A DNA stretch of 64,000 bases from Candidatus Limnocylindria bacterium (GTDB taxonomy: Bacteria > Chloroflexota > Limnocylindria > QHBO01): positions 22,004 to 86,003 of the forward strand of contig DASTTX010000160.1 in assembly GCA_035759945.1 (NCBI GenBank), written 5' to 3'. Below are positions 4,151 through 38,761 of the stretch, piece by piece (the stretch's first letter is position 1; every line of letters starts with the position of its first letter). Made by a program: the position numbers and the translations under genes. The notes under the pieces are model-generated. The model ran no database searches. It worked only from the letters and a program-made list of their open reading frames with translations, and was not told the DNA's origin.

Positions 4151-4959
4151 TACGAAGTACGTCTCCCGGTGCGAGTGGATCGGCTCCGGCGGTTCGCGGC
4201 GCGGTCGTAGGCGTCGGTGGCCTCGACGTCGCGGCCCGCGGCACGGAGCAGGTCGCCGTAGAGTAGCAGACGCTCCCTCGCCGCCTGCCGGCCGAGGGTC
4301 GGCTCGATGATGGCCACGCCGTCGGAGGCGAGGGCCGGATCGAGCCGGACCGCAAGCGACATCTCCGAGTCGCCGCGCGCGAGGTCGCCTGCGACATACG
4401 CGACGCGCGCCTCCTCGAGCCTGGCGCGCCCGGCCGCGACGCGCTCGTCGTCCGGAGCGGGGCCACCTTCCCCGTTCGCCTCGGGAGCGGGCTGCGACCA
4501 TGGCGGCCGCACGGGCTCGGCCGAGGCGGGGCGGACGGCGCTCGGTAACGGCCACGCCAGGCGACCCTCGACGCCGCCGCGCAGCGCGAATGCCTCGTCG
4601 ACCCCGATGGCGGCCAGCAGCCGCTCCTGGGCGCCAGCCGCGCGATCCGCCTCCCCGGCGTTCGCGAGCGTCTCGGCGTCGATCAGGAGCGACATGGGCA
4701 GACGCCGCTGCGGGCTCGACGGCCGGATGCCGTCCAGCGCGTGGCGGGCCGAGATCGACCGTCCCTGGCGCCAGAGCGCCTCGGCCAGCAGGAGCCGCAG
4801 GGCATCGGCCTCGTCGTCGGCACCACCATCGGCCTCGATCCGTGCCAGGCGTCGACGCAGCGTGCCCTCGGCCAGCGACGAGAGGCCGGCGTCGATCTGG
4901 GCGCGCCCGAGGCCAAGCTCATCGGCGACAAGGTCGATGAGGTGTGGGTCGTCGGTCAC
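4150..4959 (-). CDS. Hypothetical protein, TPR-like C-terminus
   Basis: This is the 3' part of track ORF 4150..5628; only the portion downstream of the M16 stop can be real. GTG at 4959..4957 overlaps the M16 TGA (GTGA coupling). There are no recognisable catalytic motifs. An alternative start is M at ~4695. Confidence 0.4.
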   Translation of the reverse strand: MTDDPHLIDLVADELGLGRAQIDAGLSSLAEGTLRRRLARIEADGGADDEADALRLLLAEALWRQGRSISARHALDGIRPSSPQRRLPMSLLIDAETLANAGEADRAAGAQERLLAAIGVDEAFALRGGVEGRLAWPLPSAVRPASAEPVRPPWSQPAPEANGEGGPAPDDERVAAGRARLEEARVAYVAGDLARGDSEMSLAVRLDPALASDGVAIIEPTLGRQAARERLLLYGDLLRAAGRDVEATDAYDRAANRRSRSTRTGRRTS

Positions 4960-6293
4960 GAGCGCAGCGCTCGGGCGAACGGCTTCCGGGATCGGAATGG
5001 ACCCAGGACGGCGAGCCTCGCCTCGGACGGCGCGATGAAGCGCCGCGCCACGCGAAGGAGATCGTCCACGGTGACGGCCTCGAGGCGCTCGATGACCTCG
5101 TCGACGGTGAGGATCCGCGGCAGCAATGACTCGCCGCTGCCGATCCAGCCGGCCACCGCACCGGAGTCCTCCATGCGCAGCTCGAGGCGGCCGCGAGTGT
5201 AGGCGCGTGCACGCTCGAGCTCGTCGGCGTCGACCGGATCGGTCGTGATGCGGTCCAGCTGCTCGAGGACGGCGCGCACGACGCGCTCGGCGTCCTCCGG
5301 GTTGAAGCCGGCATGCACACCGAAGGTGCCGGTATCGGCGTAGCTGGCGCTGAAGGTCGAGACGTCGTACACCAGCGAGCGCCGCTCGCGAAGCTCCAGG
5401 AAGAGCCGGCTGCCCATCCCGTCGCCGAGGATGGCGCCGAGCAGGTCCAGCGCCCACCTGTCCGGATGATCGCGCGCGACGCCGGGCATGCCGAGGCACA
5501 GGTTGCCCTGGCTCAGTCGCCGATGCGAGACGCGCAGGGAGCCCCCAGGCGCCGGAGCGGGGGCCGGGGCGGCGATCGGCGGCCGACGACGCGGGCCACC
5601 CACATCGGGCGGACCGGCGGCGTGCCATTCGGCCGCGGCGCGGACGATCTCGTCGTGGTCGACGCGCCCGGCGGCCGCGAGGACCATCGCGCCCGGCCGG
5701 TAGGCGGCGCGCCAGTGGCCGACGACCGCCTCGTGCGTGGCGCGTCGCACCGAGCCGATGGTGCCGGCGATCTCACGCCCCAGCGGATGCCGCCCGTACA
5801 GCAGCTCGTCGAACAGGGTGAAGACGTGGTCCGACGGCGAGTCGACGTACATCCGGATCTCGTCGACGATCACCGGCTTCTCGGCAGCGAGATCGCGGCG
5901 CCTCAGCAGCGGGTGGAGCGCCAGCTCACTGACGGCGTGGAGGGCCGTATCGGCGTGCTCGGCCGGGACCTTGGAGCTGAAGACCGTCAGCTCGCGGTCG
6001 GTGCTGGCATTCACGCTGCCGCCGATGCCCTCGACCACCTGCGACAGCGTGCCCGCCTCCGGATGGGCGCGCGTGCCCTTGAAGACGAGGTGCTCGAGGA
6101 AGTGCGAGAGGCCGGCGTGCTGCTCGTCCTCGTGGCGCGACCCGACCGGCACGAAAATGGCGACGCTGGCCGAGCGGGCGCCGGGCATCGACTGGGTGAC
6201 GACGCGAAGGCCGCTCTCGAGCACGCTCCGCTGGTGCCCGGGCGCTGCCGCGGCGACGGCGCGTGGCCGCGCGCGCACGGGCGTGGCGGTCAC
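4956..6293 (-). CDS. M16 family zinc metallopeptidase (pitrilysin/insulinase-like)
   Basis: Inverted zincin motif HFLEH (HxxEH) with a downstream E, plus two M16 domains. The likely start is GTG at 6293..6291, overlapping the upstream stop (GTGA). The N-terminal 120 aa of the track ORF is read-through. Confidence 0.85.
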   Translation of the reverse strand: MTATPVRARPRAVAAAAPGHQRSVLESGLRVVTQSMPGARSASVAIFVPVGSRHEDEQHAGLSHFLEHLVFKGTRAHPEAGTLSQVVEGIGGSVNASTDRELTVFSSKVPAEHADTALHAVSELALHPLLRRRDLAAEKPVIVDEIRMYVDSPSDHVFTLFDELLYGRHPLGREIAGTIGSVRRATHEAVVGHWRAAYRPGAMVLAAAGRVDHDEIVRAAAEWHAAGPPDVGGPRRRPPIAAPAPAPAPGGSLRVSHRRLSQGNLCLGMPGVARDHPDRWALDLLGAILGDGMGSRLFLELRERRSLVYDVSTFSASYADTGTFGVHAGFNPEDAERVVRAVLEQLDRITTDPVDADELERARAYTRGRLELRMEDSGAVAGWIGSGESLLPRILTVDEVIERLEAVTVDDLLRVARRFIAPSEARLAVLGPFRSRKPFARALRS

Positions 6294-6808
6294 GGCCCGT
6301 CCTCGTCCTCGTCCGACCGCTCGCCGTCGGCGGCATCGGCGTCGGCCGACATGAGCAGCTCCATCTGGATGAAGCGCAGGTCGCGAGCGAGCTCCTCGGC
6401 GTTGCGCGGGAGCGGCCGGCCGTTCGGCGGGTGGGCCGCATCGGTCTCTCCGTCCGCAGCGAGGCGCGGTTGGCCGCTCGCGGCGAACTCGAGCACGACG
6501 CGCTCGTTGCCGACGGTCAGTGTGTAGACGAGGAGCTGCTCCGAGGTGGTGTCGAACTGGAGGTAGTCGAACGAGTCGAGGTTGACGCAGATGGCGAGCG
6601 GCGTGAAATACGAGGCGATCTCCGGGTGATCCACCACGATGCGCTCCACCCACCCCGTGCCGGTCGACTCGACCTTCGTTCCCCGAACGTAGGTGTAGCT
6701 GACCGTCTGCTTCAGGAGCGGGCGCAGGATGTTGTAGATGTCGCTCTTGCCGGTGACCACGCCGGTGTTGATGTAGAGCTTGGCGCGCGCGTCTGGCATC
6801 GGGCTCAT
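6290..6808 (-). CDS. Hypothetical protein (172 aa) with acidic C-terminal tail
   Basis: Complete ORF with GC3-rich codon usage, beta-rich sequence and a DEDEDGP tail. It is translationally coupled to the M16 peptidase gene. I did not recognise a family. Confidence 0.5.
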   Translation of the reverse strand: MSPMPDARAKLYINTGVVTGKSDIYNILRPLLKQTVSYTYVRGTKVESTGTGWVERIVVDHPEIASYFTPLAICVNLDSFDYLQFDTTSEQLLVYTLTVGNERVVLEFAASGQPRLAADGETDAAHPPNGRPLPRNAEELARDLRFIQMELLMSADADAADGERSDEDEDGP

Positions 6809-6855: not shown

Positions 6856-7710
6856 GTGCCGCCGGGAACGACTGCTACGATACGGCCCGTGAAGCTGCTG
6901 GCGGCCGACATCGGCAACACGAACGTCTCGATCGGGCTCTTCACCGACGACCGGCTGGCGCGCTCGTGGCGCGCCATCACGCGTGCGAACGCGACCTCCG
7001 ATGAAGTCGCCGCCATGCTCACCGGCCTGCTCGCGCTGGACGGGCACCGCCTCGACGAGCTCGACGCGGTCGCGCTTGCCAGCGTCGTCCCGCCGCTGAC
7101 CGAGACGTGGGAGCGCCTCAGCGCCGATCGGATCGGCGTGGCGCCCGCCATCGTCGACGCCGCCTCGCTCGACGGCATCCTCGACATCCGGATCGATCGG
7201 CCATCGGAGGCCGGTGCGGACCGTCTCGCCAACGCGCTGGCCGCGCGGACCGAGTTCGGCGGGCCGGCGATCGTGATCGACCTGGGCACCAGCACGAACT
7301 TCGACCTCGTCGACGCCGATGGCGCCTACATCGGCGGGGCGATCGCGCCGGGCATGGGCCTCAGCCTGGAGGCGCTGGTCGGCCGCGCCAGCAAGCTGCC
7401 GCGCATCGAGCTGCGGCGTCCGCCGTCGGCGATCGGCGCCAACACCATCCACGCCATGCAGTCCGGAGCGGTGCTTGGCTACATCGGCCTGGTCAGCGGG
7501 CTGCTGACCGCGCTGCGCGGCGAGCTGATCGAGCGGTCGCCGCGCGAGGCCCGCATCACGGTCGTGGCAACCGGCGGGTACACCCACCAGCCGTGGCTGA
7601 GCGAGGTGCCCGGCATCGACCGGGTCGAGCCCGACCTCACCCTGCGCGGCATCCACTACGCGTGGGCCGCCATCCGTGATCGGTCACGCACCGCGGCGGG
7701 CGAGCGATGA
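6856..7710 (+). CDS. coaX: Type III pantothenate kinase
   Basis: LLAADIGNTN (Bvg accessory factor family phosphate-1 motif), DLGTSTNFD and TGGY motifs. GTG at 6889 is an alternative start. Confidence 0.9.
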   Translation: MPPGTTATIRPVKLLAADIGNTNVSIGLFTDDRLARSWRAITRANATSDEVAAMLTGLLALDGHRLDELDAVALASVVPPLTETWERLSADRIGVAPAIVDAASLDGILDIRIDRPSEAGADRLANALAARTEFGGPAIVIDLGTSTNFDLVDADGAYIGGAIAPGMGLSLEALVGRASKLPRIELRRPPSAIGANTIHAMQSGAVLGYIGLVSGLLTALRGELIERSPREARITVVATGGYTHQPWLSEVPGIDRVEPDLTLRGIHYAWAAIRDRSRTAAGER

Positions 7711-8975
7711 ACGAGGGCCTGGGCCCACTCGCCGGGCGCCGCATCGTCGTCGGCGTCTCGGGCAGCATCGCCGCCTACAAGGCGGTGAGCCTGGTCCGCA
7801 TGCTGGGCGACCGGGGCGCCGTTGTCGACGTCGCCATGACCGCCGCAGCGACGCGCTTCGTCGGTCCGCTGACCTTCGAGAGCCTCACCCACCGGCCCGT
7901 GCTCGACGACGTCTTCGAGCTCGACGCCGAACAGCAGATCGCGCACATCGAGCTGGCCGAGGCGGCCGATGCGATCGTCCTCGCCCCTGCGACCGCCAAC
8001 CTCATCGGCGAGCTGGCGGCCGGCCTGGTGGGTGACGCGGTGACCGCCATCGCGTGCGCCAGCCGCGCGCCGGTCATCGTGGCGCCGGCGATGGACGCCG
8101 GCATGTGGACGCACCCGGCCACGCAGCGCAACGTGGCCACCCTGCGCGACTTCGGCTACATCCTGGTCGAGCCCGAGGTCGGCGAGCTCGCGTCGGGGCT
8201 GACGGGCATCGGCCGCCTGGCGGAGCCGCCGACCATCGTCGCTGCGGTCGAGCACCTGTTCGCGCGAGCGGGGGACCTCGAGGGCCTGCACGTCGTGGTC
8301 AGCGCCGGCGGCACGCGGGAGCCCCTCGACCCCGTCCGCTTCATCGGCAATCGGAGCAGCGGCAAGATGGGCGCCGCCCTGGCGGAGGCCGCCCGCGATC
8401 GCGGCGCTGCGGTGACGCTGATCGCCGGCGCCATGAGCGTCACGCCACCACGCGGCGTCACGGTGATCGAAGCAACGACCGCGCACGCGATGCGCGAGTC
8501 GGTCCTGCGGGCGGCGCCGAACGCCGACATCCTGGTCATGGCCGCGGCCGTCGCGGACTTCGCGCCGGCCCGCGCCAGCCAGCGCAAGATCAAGCGATCC
8601 GGCGACACGCTCCAGATCGAGCTCGTGCCGAACCCGGACATCGTGGCCGAGGTCGGCGAGATGCCCGACGAGGTGCGTCCGTTTCTCATCGGCTTCGCGG
8701 CCGAGTCGAACGACCTTGAGGCGAACGCGGCGGCGAAGCTGCGCGACAAGGGGCTCGACCTCATCGTCGGCAACGTGGTCGGCGGGCCGTTCGACGCCAT
8801 CGGCTCCGATGAGAACAAGGTCACCGTCTTCGCTGCCGAGGGCGCGCTGACCGACTGGCCGATGCTGCCCAAGCGACAGGTCGCCGAGCGCCTGTGGGAT
8901 CTCATCGCTGACCGATACCGACGCTCGAGGGGGGCGACCGAGAGCACGACCTCCCCGCGCCGCCGCCGTTCGTGA
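7707..8975 (+). CDS. coaBC: Bifunctional phosphopantothenoylcysteine decarboxylase / phosphopantothenate-cysteine ligase
   Basis: N-terminal flavoprotein domain (VGVSGSIAAYKA) with a PXM(N/D)XXMW motif that here reads PAMDAGMW. C-terminal CoaB domain with GGTREPLDPVRFIGNRSSGKMG. It overlaps the coaX stop by 4 nt. Confidence 0.9.
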   Translation: MNEGLGPLAGRRIVVGVSGSIAAYKAVSLVRMLGDRGAVVDVAMTAAATRFVGPLTFESLTHRPVLDDVFELDAEQQIAHIELAEAADAIVLAPATANLIGELAAGLVGDAVTAIACASRAPVIVAPAMDAGMWTHPATQRNVATLRDFGYILVEPEVGELASGLTGIGRLAEPPTIVAAVEHLFARAGDLEGLHVVVSAGGTREPLDPVRFIGNRSSGKMGAALAEAARDRGAAVTLIAGAMSVTPPRGVTVIEATTAHAMRESVLRAAPNADILVMAAAVADFAPARASQRKIKRSGDTLQIELVPNPDIVAEVGEMPDEVRPFLIGFAAESNDLEANAAAKLRDKGLDLIVGNVVGGPFDAIGSDENKVTVFAAEGALTDWPMLPKRQVAERLWDLIADRYRRSRGATESTTSPRRRRS

Positions 8976-9826
8976 TCGTCGTCCACACCGCGGAGGAGCT
9001 GCGAGACGCGATCCTCCAGCGCCGGATCGCCGGCGACAGCGTCGGCTTCGTGCCCACCATGGGCATGCTCCACGACGGCCAGCTGTCGCTCGTGCGGCGC
9101 GCGCGCGCCGACAACGGCTGCGTGGTCGTCTCGTCGTTCGTGAACCCGCACGCCTTCAGCACGCTGGACGAGGGCCAGCCCGGCGCTCGCGATCACGTTC
9201 GCGACCTGGCGCTGCTCGACCACGCCGAGGTCGACATCGCCTTCCTGCCGGAGGTCACGACGCTCTACCCGCCCGACGACACGACGCGCGTCACGGTGGA
9301 GGGTCTGACGCGGCAGCTGGAGGGCGCGTCTCGCCCCGGACACCTCGACGGGCTGACCACGGTCATGCTCAAGCTGCTCCACCTGGTCGGCCCGGCCCGC
9401 CTGTACCTCGGCCAGCGCCACGCCCAGCAGGTCGTGATCGTCCGCCGCATGCTGCGCGACCTGTTCATGAACGTGGAGCTCGTGATCTGCCCCACGATCC
9501 GCGACGACGACGGGCTGGCGCTGTCGAGCGCCAACGCCCTGCTCGGCATCGAGGAGCGCCACGCCGCGACGTGCCTGTACAACGCGCTCAATGCGGCGAA
9601 GGCCGCCTACGACGCCGGCGAGCGCTCGGCGGAGGTGCTGCGCTGGCGGATGACCGACGTGCTGGCGGCCGAGCATCGCGCGCGCATCGACTACGTCAGC
9701 GTCGCCGACGCGACCACACTGGCCGAGCTGCAGCGCGTGTCCGATCCGGCACTGGCGCTCGTCGCGATCTGGATCGGGCGGGCGCGGCTGACCGACAACA
9801 TGCCGCTTGCCTGGGACGTGGCATAG
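8972..9826 (+). CDS. panC: Pantoate--beta-alanine ligase homolog (PanC-like; non-canonical active-site motifs)
   Basis: Alignable with E. coli/M. tuberculosis PanC along its whole length (VPTMG, EGASRPGH, LALSS). It overlaps the coaBC stop by 4 nt. Several canonical motifs are altered; see the finding at 8972..9826. Confidence 0.8.
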   Translation: MIVVHTAEELRDAILQRRIAGDSVGFVPTMGMLHDGQLSLVRRARADNGCVVVSSFVNPHAFSTLDEGQPGARDHVRDLALLDHAEVDIAFLPEVTTLYPPDDTTRVTVEGLTRQLEGASRPGHLDGLTTVMLKLLHLVGPARLYLGQRHAQQVVIVRRMLRDLFMNVELVICPTIRDDDGLALSSANALLGIEERHAATCLYNALNAAKAAYDAGERSAEVLRWRMTDVLAAEHRARIDYVSVADATTLAELQRVSDPALALVAIWIGRARLTDNMPLAWDVA

Positions 9827-9993: not shown

Positions 9994-11085
9994 CTACAGG
10001 CGCTGGAGCAACCCGTCCACGTCGATCGCGCCGTCGACCAGGTCGATGATGGTCGCGATCTTCTCCGTGTCGGCCGGATGCGTCTTGACCAGGATCTCGT
10101 CAACCGCCTGGGCGGTGCGATACGTATCGGTCCGGACCAGGTAGGCGAACAGGCCGGCTCGTCTGAGCTCGGCCAGGACCGGAGGGCGTGGCTCGAAACC
10201 GCCGGTCAGAATCACGCCGATGACTCGCGGCACGCGCGCCCCGCGGTTCGCCTCGATCGCCGCCAGCAGGAGATCGTCGCGATCGCCGGGCGTGATGAGC
10301 AGCGTTCGGTCACGCAGCAGCTCGACGGCGTGGACCGCCTCCATGGCGCCGATGGCGACCCAGCCGATCGTCTCGCCCGGTGCGGCCTCGCCGCTGCGCA
10401 GCTCTCCCTCGAGGTGCGTCGCCACCAGCTCGAGCGAGGGGTTGGCCAGCAGCTCGGAATACGGGATGCAGCCGAGGAGCTCGACGCCGTGCTGGGAAAG
10501 CCCGCGGGCGAGGATCGCGGGCAGGTCGGGGTGCGAGACGACGTCGACCTTGTTGACCACCGCGCCCAGCACGCGCACGCCGTTGGCGGCGAAGAGCGAG
10601 ACGTTGAGCACGATCTCGTCGATCGGCCGGCCGACGCCACCTTCGCTGACGACGATGACCGGCGCGTCGAGCATTGCCGCGGCCTGGGCGTTCGAGAGGC
10701 CGATGACCGCCCCCACGCCCGCGTGCCCGGTGCCCTCGATGACGACGACGTCCCGATCGCTCGCGACCCGTTCGTACGCCGTGGCGACCTGCGCCGCGAG
10801 GTCGTCGCCGATGCGTCCCATGATGAAGTCGGTGGTGAAGCGCCGCGGCAGGGTCACCGGCGACATGTCGTTCAGCGCATCGGGCAGGCCGAACACCTCG
10901 CTCATCAGGACCGCGTCCTCGTCAGCGCGGGTGCCGTCGACGACGAGGTAGCGCTGGCCGACCGGCTTCAGGAAGCCGAGCCGCAGCCCGCGCTCCCGGA
11001 TTGCGGCAAGCAGACCGAGGCTGGTCGTCGTCTTGCCACGGTTCTGGCCGGTGGCGGCCAGGAAGACGCGCCTCGCCGAGCTCAC
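9994..11085 (-). CDS. Stand-alone phosphotransacetylase N-terminal-domain-like protein (BioD/CobQ-like P-loop + DRTGG domain)
   Basis: N-terminal FLAATGQNRGKTTTSLGL (P-loop, like the Pta N-domain) and C-terminal LLITPGDRDDLLLAAIEA (DRTGG-type). There is no Pta catalytic domain. Confidence 0.7.
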   Translation of the reverse strand: MSSARRVFLAATGQNRGKTTTSLGLLAAIRERGLRLGFLKPVGQRYLVVDGTRADEDAVLMSEVFGLPDALNDMSPVTLPRRFTTDFIMGRIGDDLAAQVATAYERVASDRDVVVIEGTGHAGVGAVIGLSNAQAAAMLDAPVIVVSEGGVGRPIDEIVLNVSLFAANGVRVLGAVVNKVDVVSHPDLPAILARGLSQHGVELLGCIPYSELLANPSLELVATHLEGELRSGEAAPGETIGWVAIGAMEAVHAVELLRDRTLLITPGDRDDLLLAAIEANRGARVPRVIGVILTGGFEPRPPVLAELRRAGLFAYLVRTDTYRTAQAVDEILVKTHPADTEKIATIIDLVDGAIDVDGLLQRL

Positions 11086-11139: not shown

Positions 11140-11745
11140 CTACGAACGGGACTTCGTGCGGCGCTCCACGAGCTCGACGCCCTCGCGCAGCCGGCCGATG
11201 AGCTCGGCGTCGATCATCTCGGGCTCGAGGTGCTCGCCGAGCCGCTCGAGCATGTCGGCCGCGACGGACAGCAGCACGTCCGCATCCGCAATGAAGAACT
11301 GCGGCTCGTTGTTGTAGCGCACGAGCGTCAGGCGGCCCTGGAGCGTGAGCCCGGACTCGGTGTGCGACAGCTGCGTCCCGAAGTTGTGGCCCTGGATGCC
11401 ATCCGGGTTGTTGAGAAAGTTCAGCGCGTTGTCAATGACGAGGCCGAAGCGGGCGCGCCACGACACCAGCCGCTCCTGCACGTCGGACGGCAGGCCCATC
11501 TCACCGAGCTCCTCGAAGACGCCGCGGTCGACGGTCAGGAGCCCAACCAGCGTCGACCCGGCACGGCCGCCGAGCATGACCTGGAGCGACCGCTCCAGCG
11601 TGAACACGTCGGCGTCGAAGCGTGGGCTGGTCGTGACCTCGGCCAGCAGGTCCTCGACGTTGTCGAGCTGGCCGGGATCGGCAAGCGCATTCGCGAGGTT
11701 GTGGATCTCCTCTCGGAACAGGAAGCGCTCTTCGTGATCGAGCAT
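11140..11745 (-). CDS. Hypothetical protein (201 aa)
   Basis: Complete ORF on the same strand, 55 bp upstream of the DRTGG gene. Coding-like composition. No family recognised. Confidence 0.5.
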   Translation of the reverse strand: MLDHEERFLFREEIHNLANALADPGQLDNVEDLLAEVTTSPRFDADVFTLERSLQVMLGGRAGSTLVGLLTVDRGVFEELGEMGLPSDVQERLVSWRARFGLVIDNALNFLNNPDGIQGHNFGTQLSHTESGLTLQGRLTLVRYNNEPQFFIADADVLLSVAADMLERLGEHLEPEMIDAELIGRLREGVELVERRTKSRS

Positions 11746-11749
11746 GGCT

Positions 11750-13018
11750 CTACGGGTAGAGCCCGCGCAGCATGGTCGCCTCGGCGACGCGGGCGACGGC
11801 GACCATGTAGGCCGCGGTCCGCATGTCCACCTCGTGGCGCTCGCTCATGGCGTAGACCGCCTCGAAGGCGCGGTCCATGATCTCCTTGAGGCTCTCGTTG
11901 ATGCGCTCCTCGGTCCAGAAGAAGCTCTGCATGTCCTGGACCCACTCGAAGTAGCTGACCGTCACGCCGCCGGCGTTGCAGAGGATGTCGGGGATGAGGA
12001 AGACGCCGCGGTCGTAGAGGATCGCATCGGCTTCAGGAGTGGTCGGTCCGTTGGCGGCCTCGGCCACGACCTTGGCCTTGATGCGTGGGGCGTTGTGCCG
12101 CGTGATCTGATTCTCGAGCGCGGCCGGGACGAGGATGTCGCAGTCGACCTCGAGCAGCTCCTGGTTGCTGACCTCGTCGGCTCCGGGGAAGCCGACCACC
12201 GTGCCGTGCTCCTGCTTCCACGTCCCGACCTTCGATGGCTCCAGGCCGTTCGCGTTGTGGATGCCGCCGCTCGAGTCGCTCACGGCCACGATGGTGGCCC
12301 CCTGCTCGCGCAGCAGCGTCGCCGCGATGCTGCCGGCGTTGCCGTAGCCCTGGATCGCGACGCGCGCGCCGTGGAGCGGCTGGTTCTTCGCCGCCGCCCA
12401 CTGCTGGAGCGTGAACACGGCGCCACGCGCGGTGGCCTCGTTGCGGCCCAGCGAGCCACCGACCGCGATCGGCTTGCCGGTCACGACGCCGGGGATGGTG
12501 AAGCCGTGGTGCATGGAATAGGTGTCCATGATCCAGGCCATGGTCTGCGCGTTGGTGTTGACGTCCGGTGCAGGGATGTCGCGCTCGGGACCGATGAGCG
12601 GGCTGATCTCCGTCGTGAAGCGGCGCGTCAGCCCCTCGACCTCGCGGATCGACAGCTGCTTGGGATCGACGACCACGCCGCCCTTGGCTCCGCCGTACGG
12701 AATGTTGACGCACGCGCACTTCCACGTCATCCACATCGACAGCGCACGGACCTCGTCCAGGCTCACGTCCTGGTGGTAGCGGATGCCACCCTTGCCCGGC
12801 CCGCGGCTCACGTTGTGCTGGACGCGGTGGCCGGTGAAGACGCGGACGGATCCGTCGTCCATGGTGACGGGGAAGTTGACCGTCAGCTCACGCTGGGGAA
12901 CGCGGAGGACGCGCCGCATGCCATCGTCGAGATCGAGCTTGTCGGCTGCGTGGTCGAACTGCGACTGGGCGACCGCCCAGATGTTCGGTGCCTCCGCCAC
13001 GGGGTTCTGGCTGGCCAT
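11750..13018 (-). CDS. gdhA: Glutamate dehydrogenase (Glu/Leu/Phe/Val dehydrogenase family), paralog 1
   Basis: Catalytic-lysine region GGAKGG, an NAD(P) Rossmann fold (GYGNAGS), and a conserved dimerisation domain. Confidence 0.9.
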   Translation of the reverse strand: MASQNPVAEAPNIWAVAQSQFDHAADKLDLDDGMRRVLRVPQRELTVNFPVTMDDGSVRVFTGHRVQHNVSRGPGKGGIRYHQDVSLDEVRALSMWMTWKCACVNIPYGGAKGGVVVDPKQLSIREVEGLTRRFTTEISPLIGPERDIPAPDVNTNAQTMAWIMDTYSMHHGFTIPGVVTGKPIAVGGSLGRNEATARGAVFTLQQWAAAKNQPLHGARVAIQGYGNAGSIAATLLREQGATIVAVSDSSGGIHNANGLEPSKVGTWKQEHGTVVGFPGADEVSNQELLEVDCDILVPAALENQITRHNAPRIKAKVVAEAANGPTTPEADAILYDRGVFLIPDILCNAGGVTVSYFEWVQDMQSFFWTEERINESLKEIMDRAFEAVYAMSERHEVDMRTAAYMVAVARVAEATMLRGLYP

Positions 13019-13159: not shown

Positions 13160-15532
13160 ATGCGCGCCGAGCGCTCGACGGACGTCCGTCCCGCTAGCAT
13201 CACGCCGATGACAACCGCCGACGTGCTCGAGGCTCCCCCACCCCGCCTCACGACCGCCGATGCCGAGGGCGTCGCCCGAACCACGTTCGGCATCGAGGCC
13301 ACCGCCGAGCCACTCGTCAGCGAGCGCGATCAGAACTTCCGGCTGACCGATGCCGCCGGCGCCGGATGGGTCCTGAAGGTCTCCAACGCTGCGGAGGACC
13401 CCGGCGTGGTGGAGATGGAGGTCGCGGCCGTCGAGCGGATCGCGCTGGTCGAACCCGGGCTGCCACTGCCGGTGGCGCGGCCCGCGCTCGACGGATCCCC
13501 GATCGCGACGACCCACATCGGTGAAACGCAGCACCTCGTGCGCCTCCTGCCGCTCCTGCCTGGCCGCAACGCCAGGCCGGGCGAGCTGGACGCCGCCAGC
13601 GTCCGCGACATCGGCGAGCTGGTGGCGCGCATCGGCCATGCATTACGTGGGTTCTTCCATCCCGCCGCAGGCAGGACGATCCTGTGGGACCAGCAGCGGC
13701 TGCCCCTTCTCTTCAAGCACAGCGCCTTGGTCGAAGCACGACCGCGTCGCGATCTCCTGGAACGAGTGCTCGAGCGCTTCCGCGACCGGGTCCTGCCGGC
13801 GCTGCCGACGCTCCGGTCACAGGTCATTCACAACGACCTGACGCTCGACAACCTCCTGGTGGACGAGGCCGGGCACGTGACGGGCGTCATCGACTTCGGC
13901 GACATGGCCCACACCGCGCTGGTGCTCGACATCCCCGCCACGCTCCAGTCGCTCGTCCGCGAGCGCGATGAAATCTTCGCCGTGGCACAGGCATTCCTGG
14001 CCGGCTATGCGTCGGTCGTGCCGCTCGAGGAGCTCGAGGTGGAGCTGCTCGGCGACCTGCTGGCCGGGCGGATGGCGCAGACGATCCTGATCAGCGCGTT
14101 TCGCACCAGGCAGTACCCGGACAACGCCTACATCCACGGCTGGGCGGAGCCGGCCTGGGTGCTGCTCGAGCAGCTCGACGCGATCGGCTTCGACGATGCC
14201 TCACGCCGGCTTGCCGCCATGGCGGCGCAGCCGATGGGCTCCTCCGTCGCGAGCGACGAGGCGCTCATCGCGCGGCGGGCCGTGCTCGGCAGCGCGCTGG
14301 AGCCGCTGAGCTATCGGCGACCGCTGCATCTGGTTCGCGGGCGCGGCGCGTGGCTGGGGGACGCCGATGGACGGCGCTACCTCGACGCCTACAACAACGT
14401 GCCCGTCGTCGGCCATGCGCACCCGAAGGTGGTCGACGCCATCGCGCGCCAGTCATCGTTGCTGAACACGAACACGCGCTACCTGCACGAGCACGTGGTC
14501 GAGCTGGCGGAGCGCATCACTGCGTCCATGCCCGACGGGCTCGACACGGTCATGTTCGTCAACTCCGGGAGCGAGGCGAACGACCTCGCCTGGCGCATCG
14601 CCTCGACGGTGACCGGCGGCGACGCCGGGCTCGTCACGGATTGGGCGTACCACGGCGTCACGGCACGGATCGCGGATTTCTCGCCGTCTGAGTGGAACGA
14701 CGGCGTGCGGCCCGATGGCGTGGAGACGTTCGCGGCACCCAACACCTACCGAGGCCCGTCCGCCGACGCTGATGACCCGCCAGCGATCGCCGCCGAGGAG
14801 ATGGGATCTGCCGTGGCGCGACTGGGCGAGCGTGGTCGGCGGCCAGCGGCGCTGTACATCGACTCGCTCTTCAGCGCCGACGGGATCTTCACGCCGGATC
14901 CTGCGGTCGTTCGAGCGCTGGTGGAGTCGGCGCGCAAGGCCGGTGCGCTGTGGGTGGCGGATGAGGTCCAGTCCGGCCACGGCCGCACCGGCGGCGGCCT
15001 GTGGGGCTTCAGCGCATGGGGCATCACGCCGGACTTCGTCACGCTCGGCAAGCCGATGGGGAACGGTTATCCGATCGCTGCGGTCGTCACCCGCTCGGAC
15101 CTCGTGGACCGGTTCGCGAAGGCGACGACGTTCTTCAGCACCTTCGGCGGCAATCCGGTGGCGTGCGCCGCGGCGCTCGCCGTGCTGGACGTGATCGAGG
15201 ACGAGGACCTGGTCGCGCGGGCAGCGACCGTCGGCGACTCGCTGCGAGGCGACCTGTCGGCGCTCGCCGACAGCCATCCGTCCATCGGCGACGTGCGCGG
15301 CCGCGGGCTGATCGCCGGCGTCGAGCTCGTGCTCGACCGCGTCACGCGGGAGCCCGATCGTGAGCTGGCCGCTCGTGTCAAGGACGAGATGCGCGAGCGC
15401 GGCGTGCTGATCGGGACGACCGGCCGCCACGGCAACGTCCTGAAGATCCGTCCCCCGCTCGCGATCACCGCCGACGAGGCAGTGATGATCCCGACCCGCC
15501 TCGGCCAGGTGCTGACGGACCTCGAGCGCTAG
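13160..15532 (+). CDS. Fusion protein: N-terminal APH/choline-kinase-like kinase domain + C-terminal class-III (PLP) aminotransferase/phospho-lyase-like domain
   Basis: Kinase Brenner motif HNDLTLDN (HxDxxxxN) and IDFGD. C-terminal GK-box TLGKPMGNG (PLP lysine), DEVQSG and class-III hallmarks. 790 aa; an alternative start is MTTADVL at 13208. Confidence 0.85.
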   Translation: MRAERSTDVRPASITPMTTADVLEAPPPRLTTADAEGVARTTFGIEATAEPLVSERDQNFRLTDAAGAGWVLKVSNAAEDPGVVEMEVAAVERIALVEPGLPLPVARPALDGSPIATTHIGETQHLVRLLPLLPGRNARPGELDAASVRDIGELVARIGHALRGFFHPAAGRTILWDQQRLPLLFKHSALVEARPRRDLLERVLERFRDRVLPALPTLRSQVIHNDLTLDNLLVDEAGHVTGVIDFGDMAHTALVLDIPATLQSLVRERDEIFAVAQAFLAGYASVVPLEELEVELLGDLLAGRMAQTILISAFRTRQYPDNAYIHGWAEPAWVLLEQLDAIGFDDASRRLAAMAAQPMGSSVASDEALIARRAVLGSALEPLSYRRPLHLVRGRGAWLGDADGRRYLDAYNNVPVVGHAHPKVVDAIARQSSLLNTNTRYLHEHVVELAERITASMPDGLDTVMFVNSGSEANDLAWRIASTVTGGDAGLVTDWAYHGVTARIADFSPSEWNDGVRPDGVETFAAPNTYRGPSADADDPPAIAAEEMGSAVARLGERGRRPAALYIDSLFSADGIFTPDPAVVRALVESARKAGALWVADEVQSGHGRTGGGLWGFSAWGITPDFVTLGKPMGNGYPIAAVVTRSDLVDRFAKATTFFSTFGGNPVACAAALAVLDVIEDEDLVARAATVGDSLRGDLSALADSHPSIGDVRGRGLIAGVELVLDRVTREPDRELAARVKDEMRERGVLIGTTGRHGNVLKIRPPLAITADEAVMIPTRLGQVLTDLER

Positions 15533-20151: not shown

Positions 20152-21030
20152 CTATCCGACCTTCTTGCCCGTCTCGTCGTAGGTGTAGAAGCCGCGTCCG
20201 GTCTTGCGCCCGAGATGTCCGGCGGTGACCATCTGGCGCAGCAGCGGCGCGGCGCGGAACTTCGGGTCGCCGAAGCCGCGGTACAGCACGTCCATGACGC
20301 CGAGCATCACGTCGTTGCCGATGAAGTCGCTCAGCTCGAGCGGTCCCATCGGATGGTTCAGGCCGAGCTTCGCGCCGGTGTCGATGTCCTCCGCCGTGCC
20401 GGTCGACTCCATGAGCGCGAACACGGCCTCGTTGATGAACGGGCCGAGCATCCGGTTCACCAGGAAGCCCGGGTAGTCCTTCGACTCGATCACCGTCTTG
20501 CCGAGCTCCTCGGCGAACGTGCGGCAGGCGTCGTAGGTCTCGTCGTCGGTCTCGAGCCCGCGGATGATCTCGATGAGGCCCATCACCGGCACGGGCGAGA
20601 AAAAGTGCAGGCCGATGAACCTCGGCGCACGGTCGGTCGCCGTGGCGAGGCCGGTGATGCTGATGCTGCTGGTATTCGAGGCGAAGATCGCGATCGGGTC
20701 CGCCGCCTTCGTCAGCGCCTCCCAGGTCTGCCGCTTGACCGATTCGTCCTCGAACACGGCCTCGATGACGATGTCGTGGCCGGCGGCGCCATCGGTCCCT
20801 TCGCTGGTGCTGACGCGTTCGAGGATCTCGTCCGCGGCCGACTGCTCGAGCTTGCCCTTGTCCACCTGTCGCTTCAGGTTGGAGCCGATGCGAGCCTTGC
20901 CCTTCTCCGCCAGCTCCGCCGTGCGGTCGGAGAGCGTCACCCGCTTGCCGGCGGCAGCGCTGACCTGGGCGATGCCGTGGCCCATCAGCCCGGCGCCGAT
21001 GACGAAAACGCGTTCGATGCTCATCGTCAT
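20152..21030 (-). CDS. hbd: 3-hydroxybutyryl-CoA dehydrogenase
   Basis: Rossmann VFVIGAGLMGHGIAQV, SNTSSISIT and the catalytic His region; the C-terminal domain is typical of the 3HCDH family. The start ATG overlaps the meaB stop (ATGA). Confidence 0.9.
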   Translation of the reverse strand: MTMSIERVFVIGAGLMGHGIAQVSAAAGKRVTLSDRTAELAEKGKARIGSNLKRQVDKGKLEQSAADEILERVSTSEGTDGAAGHDIVIEAVFEDESVKRQTWEALTKAADPIAIFASNTSSISITGLATATDRAPRFIGLHFFSPVPVMGLIEIIRGLETDDETYDACRTFAEELGKTVIESKDYPGFLVNRMLGPFINEAVFALMESTGTAEDIDTGAKLGLNHPMGPLELSDFIGNDVMLGVMDVLYRGFGDPKFRAAPLLRQMVTAGHLGRKTGRGFYTYDETGKKVG

Positions 21031-21941
21031 CCAAGCCTACCAGCGTCGAGCAGGCGTTCGGCCGCGGTGAACGGGTCGAGCTCGCGATCCGCAACGGCCT
21101 GGACCGTTGCCTCCCAGCCCGGATCAGCCTCCGCGTGCCTGGCGGCGAGGTCGGCCAGTGCGCGCCGCACCTGGCTCGCGGCGCGTTCGCGCGCCCGCAT
21201 CGGCGAGCGCGCGGTGGAGCGATGCGCCTCGATCGCGTCGACGAGTGCGGGCACGCCCTCGGCGGTCGTGGCCGTGGTCACCAGGACCGGGGGCGGCTTG
21301 CGCTCGATCCGTCCACCGGCGGTGGACAGCATGGCGCGCAGCTGCCTCGCCGCCCGATCGGCACCCGGGCGGTCACCCTTGTTCACGGCGATGATGTCGG
21401 CCACCTCGAGCAGCCCTGCCTTGATGGCCTGCACCTCGTCGCCCATCTCGGGCACCTCGACCACGACGGTCGTCTCCGCGAGCCGGGCGATCTCGACCTC
21501 CGACTGCCCCGCCCCGACCGTCTCGATCAGGATCGGGTCGAAGCCCGCCGCATCGAGCGCGGCGGCGGCGATCCAGGTCGTGGCCGCCAGCCCGCCGAGC
21601 TCACCGCGCGACGCCATGGAGCGCATGAAGACGTCGCGATCGGCGGCGTGCTCCATCATCCGGATCCGATCGCCCAGGATCGCGCCGCGTGTGTACGGCG
21701 AGCTCGGGTCGACCGCCAGGATCCCGACGCGCCTGCCACGGCCGCGCCACGCACCGATGAGCGCGTTGACCAGCGTTGACTTGCCGCTCCCTGGCGGCCC
21801 GGTGATGCCGACCACGTGGGCCCCATGCCCGGCGCTGAACAGCTCCGGCAGGAGCTCCCGAACCGATGGATCGCCGCTCTCGATCCGCGTCAGCAGCCGC
21901 GCCAGCGGTCGCCGCTGGCCGGATGCCAGCTCCGCGATCAT
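21027..21941 (-). CDS. meaB: Methylmalonyl-CoA mutase-associated G-protein chaperone MeaB/ArgK
   Basis: P-loop GITGPPGSGKST, G3 ETVGAGQSE and NKGD (NKxD) motifs. Confidence 0.9.
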   Translation of the reverse strand: MIAELASGQRRPLARLLTRIESGDPSVRELLPELFSAGHGAHVVGITGPPGSGKSTLVNALIGAWRGRGRRVGILAVDPSSPYTRGAILGDRIRMMEHAADRDVFMRSMASRGELGGLAATTWIAAAALDAAGFDPILIETVGAGQSEVEIARLAETTVVVEVPEMGDEVQAIKAGLLEVADIIAVNKGDRPGADRAARQLRAMLSTAGGRIERKPPPVLVTTATTAEGVPALVDAIEAHRSTARSPMRARERAASQVRRALADLAARHAEADPGWEATVQAVADRELDPFTAAERLLDAGRLG

Positions 21942-21950
21942 GGGCGGCTG

Positions 21951-21970
21951 CCGTATATACCGTATATACG
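21951..21970. repeat. Tandem AT-rich palindromic element CCGTATATAC-CGTATATACG between icmB-like and meaB
   Basis: Two direct copies of a 9/10-mer containing the palindrome GTATATAC sit in the 36-bp intergenic gap. Local AT content is far above the ~30% background. Confidence 0.5.
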
Positions 21971-21977
21971 CAGTCCG

Positions 21978-22394
21978 TCAGGCCCGACGCACATGCTCGC
22001 GGAAGTAGCGCGCGATCTGCCCGATGCTCGTGCCCGGCCCGAAGATCTCCGCGACGCCCGCCGCCTTCAGCTTGGTGACGTCGGCATCGGGGATGATCCC
22101 GCCCGCGGCGACGAGGACGTCGTCCATGCCCCGTTGGCGGAGGAGCTCGACGGTCCGCGGCAGCAGGGCCATGTGGGCGCCGGACAGGATCGACAGCCCG
22201 ACGACGTCGACGTCCTCCTGCTCGGCGGCATCGGCGATCATCTCCGGCGTCTGGCGCAGGCCGGTGTAGATCACCTCGAAGCCCTCGTCGCGCAGCCCGC
22301 GCGCGAGCACCTTGGCGCCGCGATCGTGCCCGTCGAGGCCGGGCTTCGCGATGAGGACGCGGATGGGCGCGTCGGTCGAGCGGTCGTTCGTCAT
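21978..22394 (-). CDS. icmB: B12-binding small subunit of an acyl-CoA mutase (isobutyryl-CoA mutase small-subunit-like)
   Basis: Cobalamin-binding domain: [15 protein letters not shown] (DxHxxG His-on motif) and GGIIP. ~138 aa from ATG at 22394. The track ORF's extra 32 aa is upstream read-through. Confidence 0.8.
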
Positions 22395-22630
22395 CGGCGG
22401 GCCGATTCTACCCGGCTCCGCGTCGGTACCTGCCATGGGGACTGGAAATCGGTGCTGATGGGAGAGCGTTAGCCGGCGGATGCGTCGCAACGGACGCCGA
22501 TCCGAGCGTCAATTGCCAGCCAACGTGTCTCAATGGCCGCATAACGTGCCGCCGAGCGCGCAGATTTCCAGTCGCGCGTCGTGACCGGTCTAACGCGCGG
22601 ATGCCGAGCAGATGTCAAGTCGAGACGACG

Positions 22631-24822: not shown

Positions 24823-26823
24823 TTGGCTCGACATGATCCGCAGCCGATGAGAACCGCGGCCGGCCGAGCCATCGTGGCGACGGGGATCGTCGCGGCCGCG
24901 CTCCTGGTGGCGTGGCTTGCGCCGCCCACCGCGCCGCTGCTCGTGTGGCCTCTGCTGGTGATCGTGCCGGGCTGGTATGTGCTCGCTCGTCTCGGTCCCC
25001 GCATCGACGGGGTCGGCAGGTTGGGCCTCGCCGTCGTCGGCTCGGTGGCGTTGTCCACGCACCTCGTGTACTGGCTCTCCCAGCTGACCGATGGGTACAC
25101 CCGCGGGACGGTCTTCCTGGCTGCGGCGGTGCTCGCGACGCCGCTGCCGGTGGCCGCGTGGGCGGCCCCTCATCGGCCGCGGGTCGGTCGCGGCGCCCTT
25201 GCCGTCGTGGCGCTCGGCGCACTGGCGGCACTGGTCGTGGGAGTGACGCTGGGAATCGGAATCTGGCGCGTGACGCCGGACGGCGTCTCCTCAGGCGGCT
25301 CGAACTGGAGCGACCTCGGCGTGCACCTTTCGATTGCCGAGACGCTCAATGCCGGCACCAACTTCCCGCCGGAGGTGCCGTACTTCGCCGGCGTGCCACT
25401 GACCTATCACTGGTTCGCCGACTTCCACGCCGCCATCCTGGCCGCCGCCGCCGGCATCTTCAGCGTGCCGGCCATGGTCTTCCAGTCGGCGTTGCTTGCG
25501 TTCGCGCTGGTCCTCCTCGTCGCATCGCTCGCCCGCCGCCTGGTGCGCGGTCACGACGCCCGTCGCGTCGCGCTGCTGGCGGCGGCGCTGGCCGTGTTCG
25601 GCGGCGGCATCGGCTACATCCGCTTCATCGGCGACGTCGGCGCGGGCCAGCTCTCGCCGCTCGAGCTCATCGCGCGCAACAGCTACGACAACCAGTGGCT
25701 CACCGGCTGGCCGTACTTCCGAATTCCGTCGGTCATGGGCACCGGCCTGCTGGCGCACCGCGCGACGACGGCCGGGCTGCCGATGCTGATCGGTGCCGTG
25801 CTGCTGCTCGTGACCGGGCTTCCGTCGGCGCGCCAGCGGGCGCGTGGCTGGCGCGATCGGCCCCTCGTGATCGGCGCGGCGGGCGTGCTCGGCGCCCTGC
25901 TGGCGCCGTTCCACTTCTTCTTTTTCCCCGTCTTCCCGCTGCTGGCGTTGGCGTGGGTCGTGGCGGGCCGGCGGCTGCTCGACGCGTCCGCGCCGCGGAG
26001 CGCGCTCACGCTCCTCGCGCCATACGTGCTGGCGCTGCCCTTCGTGATCGCCCCGGCGCTGCAGGCGGGCGGCTCGGGCGCGGTCCAGGTGGTCAGCGTG
26101 TGGCCGTCCGCTCCTCGCGAGGACGGCCTGGCCGCCGTGCTCTTCTTCTACGTCACCAACCTCGGCGTTCCCTTCGTGCTCGCGTTGGCCGCCCTGCTGC
26201 TGCCCCGCGTGCCGCACCGCGGCTTCATCGCCGCCTGGATCATCGGCCTGTTCCTGGTCCCGAACGTCGTGCAGCTCAGCGTCATCGACTTCGACATGAA
26301 CAAGTACTTCCAGGCGATGTGGATCGCGGTCGCCGTCCTGGCCGCGTGGCTCATCCGTCGCTGGCCGGCGCCCGCGGTGGCGGCGGTCATCGCGCTCAGC
26401 GTCCCGTCGCCGCTCCTCGTTGCGGGATGGACAGCGACGAGCAATCTCCAGGCGCTTTCGACCGCCGAGCTGGAGGCGGCTCACTGGGTGGCCGCCCACA
26501 CGCCACCGGACGCCGTCTTCGTGACCGACGGCTGGGTCAACTCGCTGACCGATGCGGCGGGACGCAAGCGGCTCACGACGTTCGGGCCGTACGTCGCCAA
26601 CCTGGGCTACCGCCCCGATGAGCGGATCAGCAACGTGATCAGCATCTACTGCGGGGGCGACACCGCCCTGTCCGCGCAGCTGATGCGGCGCTACGGGGCG
26701 AGCTACGTGGTGGATGGAGCGCGGCCGACGCCGTGCGTCGCCGCGGTCGACTTCGCGAGCGATCCGGCCTTCGAGCTCGTCTACGACGCCGGCCCACGCA
26801 TCTGGCATCTGCGCGACCCATAA
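24823..26823 (+). CDS. Large polytopic membrane protein, GT-C-type glycosyltransferase-like
   Basis: 666 aa, roughly 14 hydrophobic segments with a periplasmic-loop-rich architecture typical of GT-C (ArnT/PMT/Emb-like) enzymes. It is divergent from the PAP2 gene, with only 17 bp between the annotated starts. I did not identify a specific family. Confidence 0.6.
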   Translation: MARHDPQPMRTAAGRAIVATGIVAAALLVAWLAPPTAPLLVWPLLVIVPGWYVLARLGPRIDGVGRLGLAVVGSVALSTHLVYWLSQLTDGYTRGTVFLAAAVLATPLPVAAWAAPHRPRVGRGALAVVALGALAALVVGVTLGIGIWRVTPDGVSSGGSNWSDLGVHLSIAETLNAGTNFPPEVPYFAGVPLTYHWFADFHAAILAAAAGIFSVPAMVFQSALLAFALVLLVASLARRLVRGHDARRVALLAAALAVFGGGIGYIRFIGDVGAGQLSPLELIARNSYDNQWLTGWPYFRIPSVMGTGLLAHRATTAGLPMLIGAVLLLVTGLPSARQRARGWRDRPLVIGAAGVLGALLAPFHFFFFPVFPLLALAWVVAGRRLLDASAPRSALTLLAPYVLALPFVIAPALQAGGSGAVQVVSVWPSAPREDGLAAVLFFYVTNLGVPFVLALAALLLPRVPHRGFIAAWIIGLFLVPNVVQLSVIDFDMNKYFQAMWIAVAVLAAWLIRRWPAPAVAAVIALSVPSPLLVAGWTATSNLQALSTAELEAAHWVAAHTPPDAVFVTDGWVNSLTDAAGRKRLTTFGPYVANLGYRPDERISNVISIYCGGDTALSAQLMRRYGASYVVDGARPTPCVAAVDFASDPAFELVYDAGPRIWHLRDP

Positions 26824-37489: not shown

Positions 37490-38761
37490 ATGACGACCGA
37501 GCGGCGGCGCGCGACATCGGCCAACGACCTGTGGACCCACATCCAGGGCGAGCTGGACGCAGCGGCCGAGCGGCTGGGGCTCGACGACGGCATGCATCGC
37601 GTGCTGCGCGTGCCGAAGCGCGAGCTGACGGTGCACTTCCCGGTCACGCATGACGACGGACACGTCGAGGTCTACACCGGTTACCGCGTGCACCACAACG
37701 TCAATCGCGGACCGACCACGGGCGGCATCCGCTACGTGCCCGGCCTCGACCTCGACGAGGTGCGCGCGCTGGCCATGCTCAACACCTGGAAGGCGGCGCT
37801 CGTGAGGATCCCGTTCGGCGGCGCGGCCGGCGGCGTGCGGGTCAACCCGCGCCGGCTGTCCGAGAACGAGCGGCAGGGCCTGACACGCCGGTTCGCGACC
37901 GAGATCGGTCCCCTGCTGGGGCCCGACAGCGACATCCCCAGCCCCGACGTCAACACCGGCTCGCAGACGATGGCGTGGATCATGGACACGCTCTCGATGC
38001 ACCGGGGCCATACGGTGGCGGCGTCGGTGATCGGCAAGCCGCTCGCCATCGGCGGGACGCGTGGACGTCGCAGCGCCACGGCGCGCGGCGCGTTTCGATG
38101 CATCGCGGCCAGCGCCGCGAGCATGGGCCTCGAGCTGAACGGCTCGCGGGTGGCGATCCAGGGCTTCGGGCGCGTCGGCATGACGATCGCCGAGGAGCTC
38201 GCCGGGGCGGGCGTTCGCGTTGTCGCACTCGCCGACGATCGAGATGCCGTCGCCAACGAGTCCGGGATCACCGTGGATCGGGCAGTTGACTGGATGCGCG
38301 AGCACGATGCCATCAGCGGCCTGCCCGAGACAGAGCCGATGACCAAGGCCGACATTTTCGCGATCGACTGCGACGTCCTCGTCCTTGCGGGACTCCAGGG
38401 CGAAGTGACCGATGGCAACGCCGGCGCCATCAAGGCCCGCATCGTGGCCGAGGTCGCCAACGGCGGCACGACGCCAGCCGCCGACCTGGTGCTGGCCGAT
38501 CGCGGCGTGACCGTCATCCCGGACATCGTGGCCACAGCGGGCGGGACCGTGCTCGGCTACTTCGAGTGGGTGCAGGACATGCAGGCCTTCTTCTGGAGCG
38601 AGGCCGAGATCACCGCGCAGCTGGACCGGATCATGGACGAGGCGATGGGTGACATCGGGGCCATGGCCAGCGCCGAGAGGGTCGACCTGCGCAGCGCGGC
38701 GATGATGGTCGCCGTGTCGCGCGTCGCCGATGCCACGACGCTGCGCGGGCTCTACCCCTAG
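37490..38761 (+). CDS. Glutamate dehydrogenase (Glu/Leu/Phe/Val dehydrogenase family), paralog 2
   Basis: Clearly paralogous to 11750..13018 (e.g. DGMHRVLRVPKRELTVHFPVTHDDGHVEVYTGYRVHHNVNRGP vs [43 protein letters not shown]). The GGAAGG catalytic-Lys loop differs slightly. Confidence 0.9.
   Translation: MTTERRRATSANDLWTHIQGELDAAAERLGLDDGMHRVLRVPKRELTVHFPVTHDDGHVEVYTGYRVHHNVNRGPTTGGIRYVPGLDLDEVRALAMLNTWKAALVRIPFGGAAGGVRVNPRRLSENERQGLTRRFATEIGPLLGPDSDIPSPDVNTGSQTMAWIMDTLSMHRGHTVAASVIGKPLAIGGTRGRRSATARGAFRCIAASAASMGLELNGSRVAIQGFGRVGMTIAEELAGAGVRVVALADDRDAVANESGITVDRAVDWMREHDAISGLPETEPMTKADIFAIDCDVLVLAGLQGEVTDGNAGAIKARIVAEVANGGTTPAADLVLADRGVTVIPDIVATAGGTVLGYFEWVQDMQAFFWSEAEITAQLDRIMDEAMGDIGAMASAERVDLRSAAMMVAVSRVADATTLRGLYP

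Follow-up and report, generated by a model that had tools for sequence, protein, structure and literature searches.

The 64-kb stretch of DNA analysed here (the window, part of contig DASTTX010000160.1 of a Candidatus Limnocylindria bacterium) carries an operon of the pantothenate-to-coenzyme A (CoA) pathway, one gene of which encodes a homolog of the pantothenate synthetase PanC (EC 6.3.2.1). This variant PanC-derived open reading frame (ORF) is referred to below as the variant PanC, and residue numbers such as H47 are those of Mycobacterium tuberculosis (Mtb) PanC. The operon is made up of the following features:

6856..7710, forward strand: coaX, type III pantothenate kinase (NF009855, 241.8 bits, cutoff 233), with a 4-nucleotide (nt) overlap with coaBC
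7707..8975, forward strand: coaBC, canonical phosphopantothenoylcysteine synthetase/decarboxylase (TIGR00521, 427 bits, cutoff 219.7; Pfam Flavoprotein and DFP)
8972..8975, forward strand: GTGA overlap in the sequence, formed by the start codon GTG of the variant PanC (8972..8974) and the stop codon TGA of coaBC (8973..8975)
8972..9826, forward strand: variant PanC, an ORF of 284 amino acids (aa) with a remodelled active site

The initial annotation of this DNA had described the PanC homolog as translationally coupled to coaBC, and the GTGA overlap agrees with that description. The motifs of CoaX are canonical, its conserved blocks DxGNT, GADR, DxGT and ATGG matching those of 2h3g, 9b78 and 3djc in an alignment. 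By family models the variant PanC is a full-length PanC homologue, scoring 275.8 bits with PF02569 (cutoff 20.7) and 266.8 bits with the "equivalog" model TIGR00018 (cutoff 212.75), and its closest solved structure is the PanC of Thermotoga maritima (2ejc; E = 3e-71, 45% identity). An AlphaFold2 (AF2) model of the protein, with a predicted local distance difference test (pLDDT) score of 85.5, superimposes on 2ejc with a template modelling (TM) score of 0.93 and a root mean square deviation of 1.9. The two-domain PanC fold, made up of a Rossmann-type N domain and a C-terminal domain, is present in this model, for which the top 50 Foldseek matches were all PanC. In the NCBI and JGI records the protein is named pantoate-beta-alanine ligase.

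For comparison of the active site, the Mtb PanC sequence from PDB entry 1mop was aligned to the window protein, as was 2ejc. Three sets of sequences were then considered, namely 143 full-length canonical PanC proteins, 35–50% identical to the query and drawn from 1.84 billion cluster representatives; 115 sequences of the nearest canonical clade, called here the sister lineage (258 canonical sequences in total); and 316 distinct variant sequences. The alignments with 2ejc and 1mop bear out the four altered motifs listed in the initial annotation, in that HDGQ, NPHAF, GQRHAQQ and SSAN stand in place of canonical HxGH, NPxQF, GxKDxQQ and SSRN. That list was real but incomplete, as there are six further changes in D78, Y82, P83, F136, V139 and V143. 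The Glu to Gln change it had noted in GEKD is an ordinary one, with Q outnumbering E in the canonical set (85 vs 38) and T. maritima PanC itself reading GQKD, while the Lys to Arg change is present in the window protein but is not clade-wide (R 77%, K 23%). The altered codons and stretches are:

9080..9082, forward strand: codon CAG, Q37 in place of H47, the second His of HxGH (Q in 313/316 variant sequences)
9152..9154, forward strand: codon GCC, A61 in place of Q72, the pantoate-binding Gln of NPxQF (A in 144, E in 123, S in 22 and D in 20 variant sequences)
9170..9187, forward strand: gate-loop codons E67 to A72, with D78E, Y82G and P83A (D78 to E fixed, 315/316)
9344..9367, forward strand: L125, L128 and M132 in place of F136, V139 and V143, in the hydrophobic-lined part of the cavity (V139 to L in 315/316)
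9416..9418, forward strand: codon CGC, R149 in place of K160 of GxKDxQQ (R in 242 and K in 74 variant sequences)
9419..9421, forward strand: codon CAC, H150 in place of D161 of GxKDxQQ (H in 316/316)
9530..9532, forward strand: codon GCC, A187 in place of R198, the Arg of SSRN (A in 313/316)

Five of the replaced residues (H47, Q72, K160, D161, R198) are invariant in canonical PanC, being found in 143/143 of the diverse sequences and in 115/115 of the nearest canonical clade. Canonical PanC has 54 positions with conservation of 95% or more; of these, 41 are unchanged in the variant clade, two have kept the same majority residue with more variation and 11 are changed. The changes include the contacts to the phosphates and ribose of adenosine triphosphate (ATP) (H47Q, K160R, D161H, R198A) and residues on the pantoate/beta-alanine side of the pocket (Q72A, D78E, Y82G, P83A, F136L, V139L, V143M). 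All 11 positions are on the published list of the Mtb PanC active-site cavity (PMC11317409), and as 32 of the 54 conserved positions belong to the cavity, the hypergeometric probability of finding 11/11 there is 0.0013. The other 21 conserved cavity residues are kept in the variant clade, and the 41 unchanged positions include PTMG, H44 (the first His of HxGH), N69, Q163/Q164, S196/S197 and N199, with H44, Q163, Q164, S196 and N199 (H34, Q152, Q153, S185 and N188 of the variant PanC) each present in 316/316 sequences. Of the pantoate-binding glutamines Q72 and Q164, Q164 alone is retained. The replacement of Q72 is inconsistent across the clade (A, E, S, D, T or G), and among the 316 variant sequences the gate-loop position of Y82 (71) is occupied by G, M, L, A, T or S and that of P83 (72) is highly variable.

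How much these residues matter to the Mtb enzyme has been described: salt bridges link K160 and R198 to the phosphates of ATP (PMC5772511), and alanine mutants of H44, H47, N69, Q72 and K160 each lose more than 1000-fold of their activity, according to the work of Zheng et al. as it is related in PMC5772511. The variant PanC belongs to the PanC family in sequence and fold, and five motif-level features that define the enzyme fail in it, these being HxGH, Q72, GxKDxQQ, SSRN and the gate loop.

The distribution of the variant was assessed by scanning a single genome for each GTDB species, and 128 species matched; the counts of variant loci given here rest on the best 80 of these 128. The variant pattern is found in at least 80 species-level genomes, where the 80 loci are 74–99% identical and have intact 284-aa ORFs. 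The labels are almost all Limnocylindria or Chloroflexota; a few of the loci lie in metagenome-assembled genomes (MAGs) under other names. The same substituted states are seen in the top 120 database relatives of the window protein (84–96% identity), which is itself 99% identical to a protein on contig DASSCI010000005.1 of another Candidatus Limnocylindria MAG. A search seeded with the divergent member P0271 led to a further variant subclade (P0271, P0405–P0524). The variant is a character of a large subclade of Limnocylindria (Chloroflexota) from soil. The initial annotation had taken the frequent occurrence of these substitutions in functional PanC of the same clade as grounds for withdrawing its claim; in the large alignment they are universal in the clade, which agrees with that condition in form, but it is not implied that the members of the clade are functional PanC enzymes.

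Variant loci were also found in MAGs named Angelobacter, Binatia, Steroidobacteraceae, Dormiibacterota or Methylomirabilota (L009, L019, L023, L026, L040, L065, L069, L083). These loci have Limnocylindria-like synteny, and their non-Chloroflexota labels are probably due to bin contamination or mislabelling. Three sequences from ENA assemblies (P0123, P0127, P0256) are frameshifted or truncated copies of the variant, sporadic in occurrence, which form separate cluster representatives at 50% identity and can mimic divergent members. They had been considered as evidence of drift in NPxQF and were discarded from it as frameshifted copies.

The genes around the operon were compared with those of the sister lineage, to which the closest canonical PanC belongs (P0124, 50% identical; the clade includes P0392, a protein named Limnocylindrales). 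The anchors of this synteny in the window are:

4956..6653, reverse strand: M16 peptidase, upstream anchor
6290..6808, reverse strand: small ORF overlapping the M16 peptidase, upstream anchor
9994..11085, reverse strand: AAA_26+DRTGG protein (by Pfam and synteny), downstream anchor, common to the canonical sister locus
11140..11745, reverse strand: conserved 201-aa ORF, anchor
11750..13018, reverse strand: glutamate dehydrogenase (GDH), anchor

In sister loci L086–L088 the order of genes is M16 peptidase, small ORF, coaX, coaBC, panB and panC, followed on the minus strand by the DRTGG gene, the 201-aa ORF and GDH. The order in the window is the same minus panB, a gene of 915 bp which in the sister lineage lies between coaBC and panC, at the junction that the GTGA site of 8972..8975 marks in the window. 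Because synteny is conserved with a sister lineage that carries canonical PanC, the variant PanC is the orthologue of canonical PanC and not an extra copy. The "non-catalytic paralogue" offered as one explanation in the initial annotation is thus not a paralogue, and neither the window nor any of the variant loci contains a match to a second PanC.

Among 83 sister loci (L086–L088 and 80 from a metagenome scan), panB is upstream of panC in 76, and the remaining seven are cut by a contig end, five with panC no more than about 120 nt from that end and two ending inside a membrane ORF of about 240 aa. In the variant lineage the end of coaBC lies at most 121 nt ahead of the variant PanC in 78 of 80 loci, and the other two begin at a contig end, so that panB is gone from the operon in 78/78 informative variant loci. 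With the sister PanB as tblastn query, no match came up in the window or any of the variant loci, and around the junction this held even at E = 10. Pfam scans of approximately 44 ORFs, which took in most of the first 57 kb or so of the 64-kb window, found no pan genes outside the operon. The divergent variant subclade has the same panB-less arrangement (L092). As panB likewise lies upstream of panC in two distant canonical outgroup loci (panB-panE-panC-panD and panB-panC-panD), the upstream panB looks to be ancestral and its absence in the variant lineage derived. In every informative locus the change in the 11 residues coincides exactly with the operon's loss of panB. The initial annotation had drawn attention to the lack of an adjacent panD; the important missing neighbour is panB.

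The ~240-aa ORF occurs between panB and panC in four further sister loci (L143 1450..2376, L158 1517..2278, L160 2052..2924 and L165 3146..3979; compare also L125 and L144). It has hydrophobic N- and C-terminal segments and is a probable membrane protein.

Selection on the variant PanC was assessed by pairwise Nei-Gojobori estimates of the ratio of nonsynonymous to synonymous substitution rates (dN/dS) within the variant clade. The medians were 0.224 for the variant PanC (over 3240 pairs), 0.234 for coaX, 0.158 for coaBC, 0.164 for GDH and 0.255 for the DRTGG gene, values which in a genome of 70% G+C, with about 95% G+C at third codon positions (GC3), are meaningful only relative to neighbouring genes. 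Purifying selection on the variant PanC is as strong as that on coaX, and the maintenance of the gene therefore matches that of its CoA-pathway neighbours. Between the variant and sister lineages, PanC, CoaX and CoaBC are each 50% identical. The Poisson distance of the variant PanC to 141 outgroup sequences is 0.871, compared with 0.738 for the sister PanC, the variant being the farther from all 141; without the 11 signature columns the distances are 0.833 and 0.784, and most of the excess is gone. A global acceleration of the variant PanC was considered and is not seen, given the ~50% identity of all three proteins and the location of the excess in the signature columns. In terms of sequence, the change is best described as a targeted rebuilding of the pocket and not a general relaxation.

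We consider it likely that the variant PanC is no longer a pantothenate synthetase and that the lineage feeds imported pantothenate, on which it would depend, into its canonical CoaX and CoaBC. The operon of the variant lineage is without panB, and the start of PanC is fused to the stop of coaBC; in the proposed course of events panB was deleted, and the protein would have lost pantothenate synthesis and been kept for another role. Loss of function is suggested because residues found essential by mutagenesis are changed, because there is drift within the clade at the positions of Q72, Y82 and P83 and because the change coincides with the loss of the adjacent pantoate-pathway gene. The name pantoate-beta-alanine ligase is, on these grounds, probably wrong as a statement of the function of the protein.

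With regard to the role that was kept, the residues on the nucleotide side are conserved while Q72 and the gate-loop positions drift, and it is for this reason that we prefer, tentatively and with slightly less than even confidence, the view that the variant PanC is a ligand-binding accessory of the CoA pathway. It would still bind an adenine nucleotide or a related ligand, having lost the ligase cycle, and would be retained as a co-expressed, pseudoenzyme-like accessory of the pantothenate-to-CoA pathway, serving as a sensor, a regulator or a scaffold. Like known pseudoenzymes, the variant PanC is the homologue of an active enzyme, has lost residues that are experimentally essential (H47, Q72 and K160), is under purifying selection and has a conserved fold. 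It differs from them in that its loss of activity is presumptive and in that many of its catalytic-type residues are still invariant, which leaves room for a new enzymatic activity.

A number of observations weigh against the loss of activity or the accessory role. The changed positions do not exceed the background conservation of the variant clade, with seven of the 11 at least 95% conserved there, compared with 56% of all sites. The changes H47Q and K160R are chemically conservative, so that ATP binding or adenylate formation might persist, which would fit a working enzyme equally well; the invariant Q164, H44 and Ser-Ser pair are likewise as much to be expected of an enzyme as of a ligand sensor. 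Conservation alone neither reveals nor rules out a new catalytic constellation and cannot separate an accessory from a ligase of altered function. The AF2 models do not discriminate between the variant and sister lineages, the gate loop of the variant (residues 59–71) having pLDDT below 50 and a canonical sister control being equally low at 64–73. Any interaction partner or regulatory target of the variant PanC is hypothetical, and the search for panB covered the 64-kb window and, for each locus, its surroundings to a maximum of 20 kb.

The explanation that comes second to the accessory role is a neo-functionalised ligase, still ATP-dependent and adenylate-forming, with its acyl and amine sites rebuilt for other substrates and a product relevant to the CoA operon. 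We regard this as possible though rather unlikely. It would account for the invariance of H44, T39-M40-G41, Q163/Q164, S196/S197, N199, R132, H135 and E128 in the 316 sequences and for the mildness of the H-to-Q and K-to-R changes, and the fixed new pocket residues L125, L128 and M132 would speak of reshaping rather than decay, in a gene under selection equal to that on CoaX and translationally coupled to coaBC. On the other hand, positions 61 (Q72), 71 and 72 vary freely, which is unusual for substrate contacts, the phosphate ligand R198 has become Ala, no candidate substrate-supplying gene has been gained beside the operon, and the literature search gave no member of the PanC family that uses another acid. 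The initial annotation had spoken of either a diverged ligase or a non-catalytic protein, and both of these are still live, leaving aside its wording of a paralogue.

Two more specific proposals may be put together here, and both appear improbable at present. The variant PanC could be a new PanC-fold enzyme, a non-pantoate ligase or adenylyltransferase, which would provide a new entry to the CoA pathway or a CoA-linked modification, or it could be a sensor: D161 hydrogen-bonds to the bound nucleotide, and the His in its place might fit a ribose that carries a phosphate, as the one in CoA does. Type III pantothenate kinases are not known to be feedback-controlled, and such a sensor, if real, would supply feedback control of the CoA pathway.

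It is more doubtful still that the protein remains a pantothenate synthetase through a lineage-specific active-site solution, with panB relocated or pantoate obtained from outside, and of the explanations in the initial annotation this is the least supported. The score above the TIGR00018 equivalog cutoff, the intact fold, the place in a CoA operon under purifying selection and the span of the panB searches, which leaves room for relocation, would all be compatible with it. Set against these are the replacement of all five residues that are invariant in 258 canonical sequences, at three of which single alanine mutants lose more than 1000-fold of the activity in the results of Zheng et al. as given in PMC5772511; the inconsistent replacement of Q72 and the loss of Y82 and P83 from the gate loop; and the coincidence of the change, in every locus examined, with the deletion of the operon's panB. 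Finally, a functionless decaying relic or an assembly or sequencing artefact, including the errors at these codons that the initial annotation had allowed for, may be dismissed despite the few frameshifted public copies (P0123, P0127, P0256), since intact 284-aa ORFs with the same states recur in 316 distinct sequences and 80 species genomes (74–99% identity) from independent assemblies of many studies, 41 of the 54 family-invariant positions are retained and dN/dS is 0.22, like that of coaX.

Set beside known systems, the variant PanC shares with canonical PanC (2ejc, 1mop) its Pfam and TIGRFAM family, its length and its two-domain fold, and differs in the replacement of eleven cavity residues and in having no adjacent panB. 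The PanC of the sister lineage (the P0124/P0360 clade) is encoded at an orthologous locus, flanked on either side by the same genes, but has all of the canonical residues (115/115) and either panB immediately upstream or panB and one membrane ORF. In the archaeal route of pantoate kinase and phosphopantothenate synthetase, the PanC step of CoA biosynthesis is carried out without canonical PanC by enzymes that are unrelated in sequence to PF02569; the system described here differs, as the variant PanC is homologous to PanC and its operon includes a type III pantothenate kinase. In the literature search there was no report of a PanC pseudoenzyme or paralogue, of a PanC with these substitutions or of pantothenate auxotrophy in Limnocylindria/Ellin6529.

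As the variant PanC passes an equivalog cutoff, automated metabolic reconstructions will credit these genomes with the PanC step, although the organisms of the variant lineage may be vitamin B5 auxotrophs. According to PMC13212565, Limnocylindria are an abundant Chloroflexota clade. The locus also amounts to a natural experiment on the fate of an enzyme after its substrate supply has been deleted, since the same locus is found with panB and canonical PanC or with neither, and in the lineage without panB the PanC homologue is still selected, with its pocket specifically rebuilt. Should the protein prove to be a pseudoenzyme or to act on another substrate, this would extend the PanC family, a validated drug target and textbook adenylate-forming enzyme.

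Some further observations were made on the neighbouring genes. The first-start ORF of the M16 peptidase is probably over-extended at its 5' end, as its homologues are 422–444 aa long. The AAA_26+DRTGG protein (9994..11085, reverse strand) is similar to the N-terminal half of phosphate acetyltransferase, matching no more than about the first half of the Pta model NF004167, and its gene adjoins panC in variant and canonical lineages alike. The 201-aa ORF (11140..11745, reverse strand) has no Pfam match and shows the highest conservation in the neighbourhood, with 71% identity between the variant and sister lineages and dN/dS of 0.135; in every case it has the DRTGG gene on one side and GDH on the other. 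The window has two paralogues of Glu/Leu/Phe/Val dehydrogenase, at 11750..13018 (reverse strand) and 37490..38761 (forward strand). Next to the former, at 13160..15532 (forward strand), an ORF of 790 aa joins an APH-type phosphotransferase domain (PF01636) to a class-III aminotransferase (PF00202); this fusion also adjoins the GDH gene in variant-lineage loci L089 and L091. The components of methylmalonyl-CoA mutase are split between 21027..22490 (reverse strand) and 42004..43758 (forward strand), with MeaB and the B12-binding subunit grouped with fatty-acid beta-oxidation genes and the large catalytic subunit 20 kb away. A 666-aa ORF at 24823..26823 (forward strand) has no Pfam match and a coding-like GC3 of 0.91.

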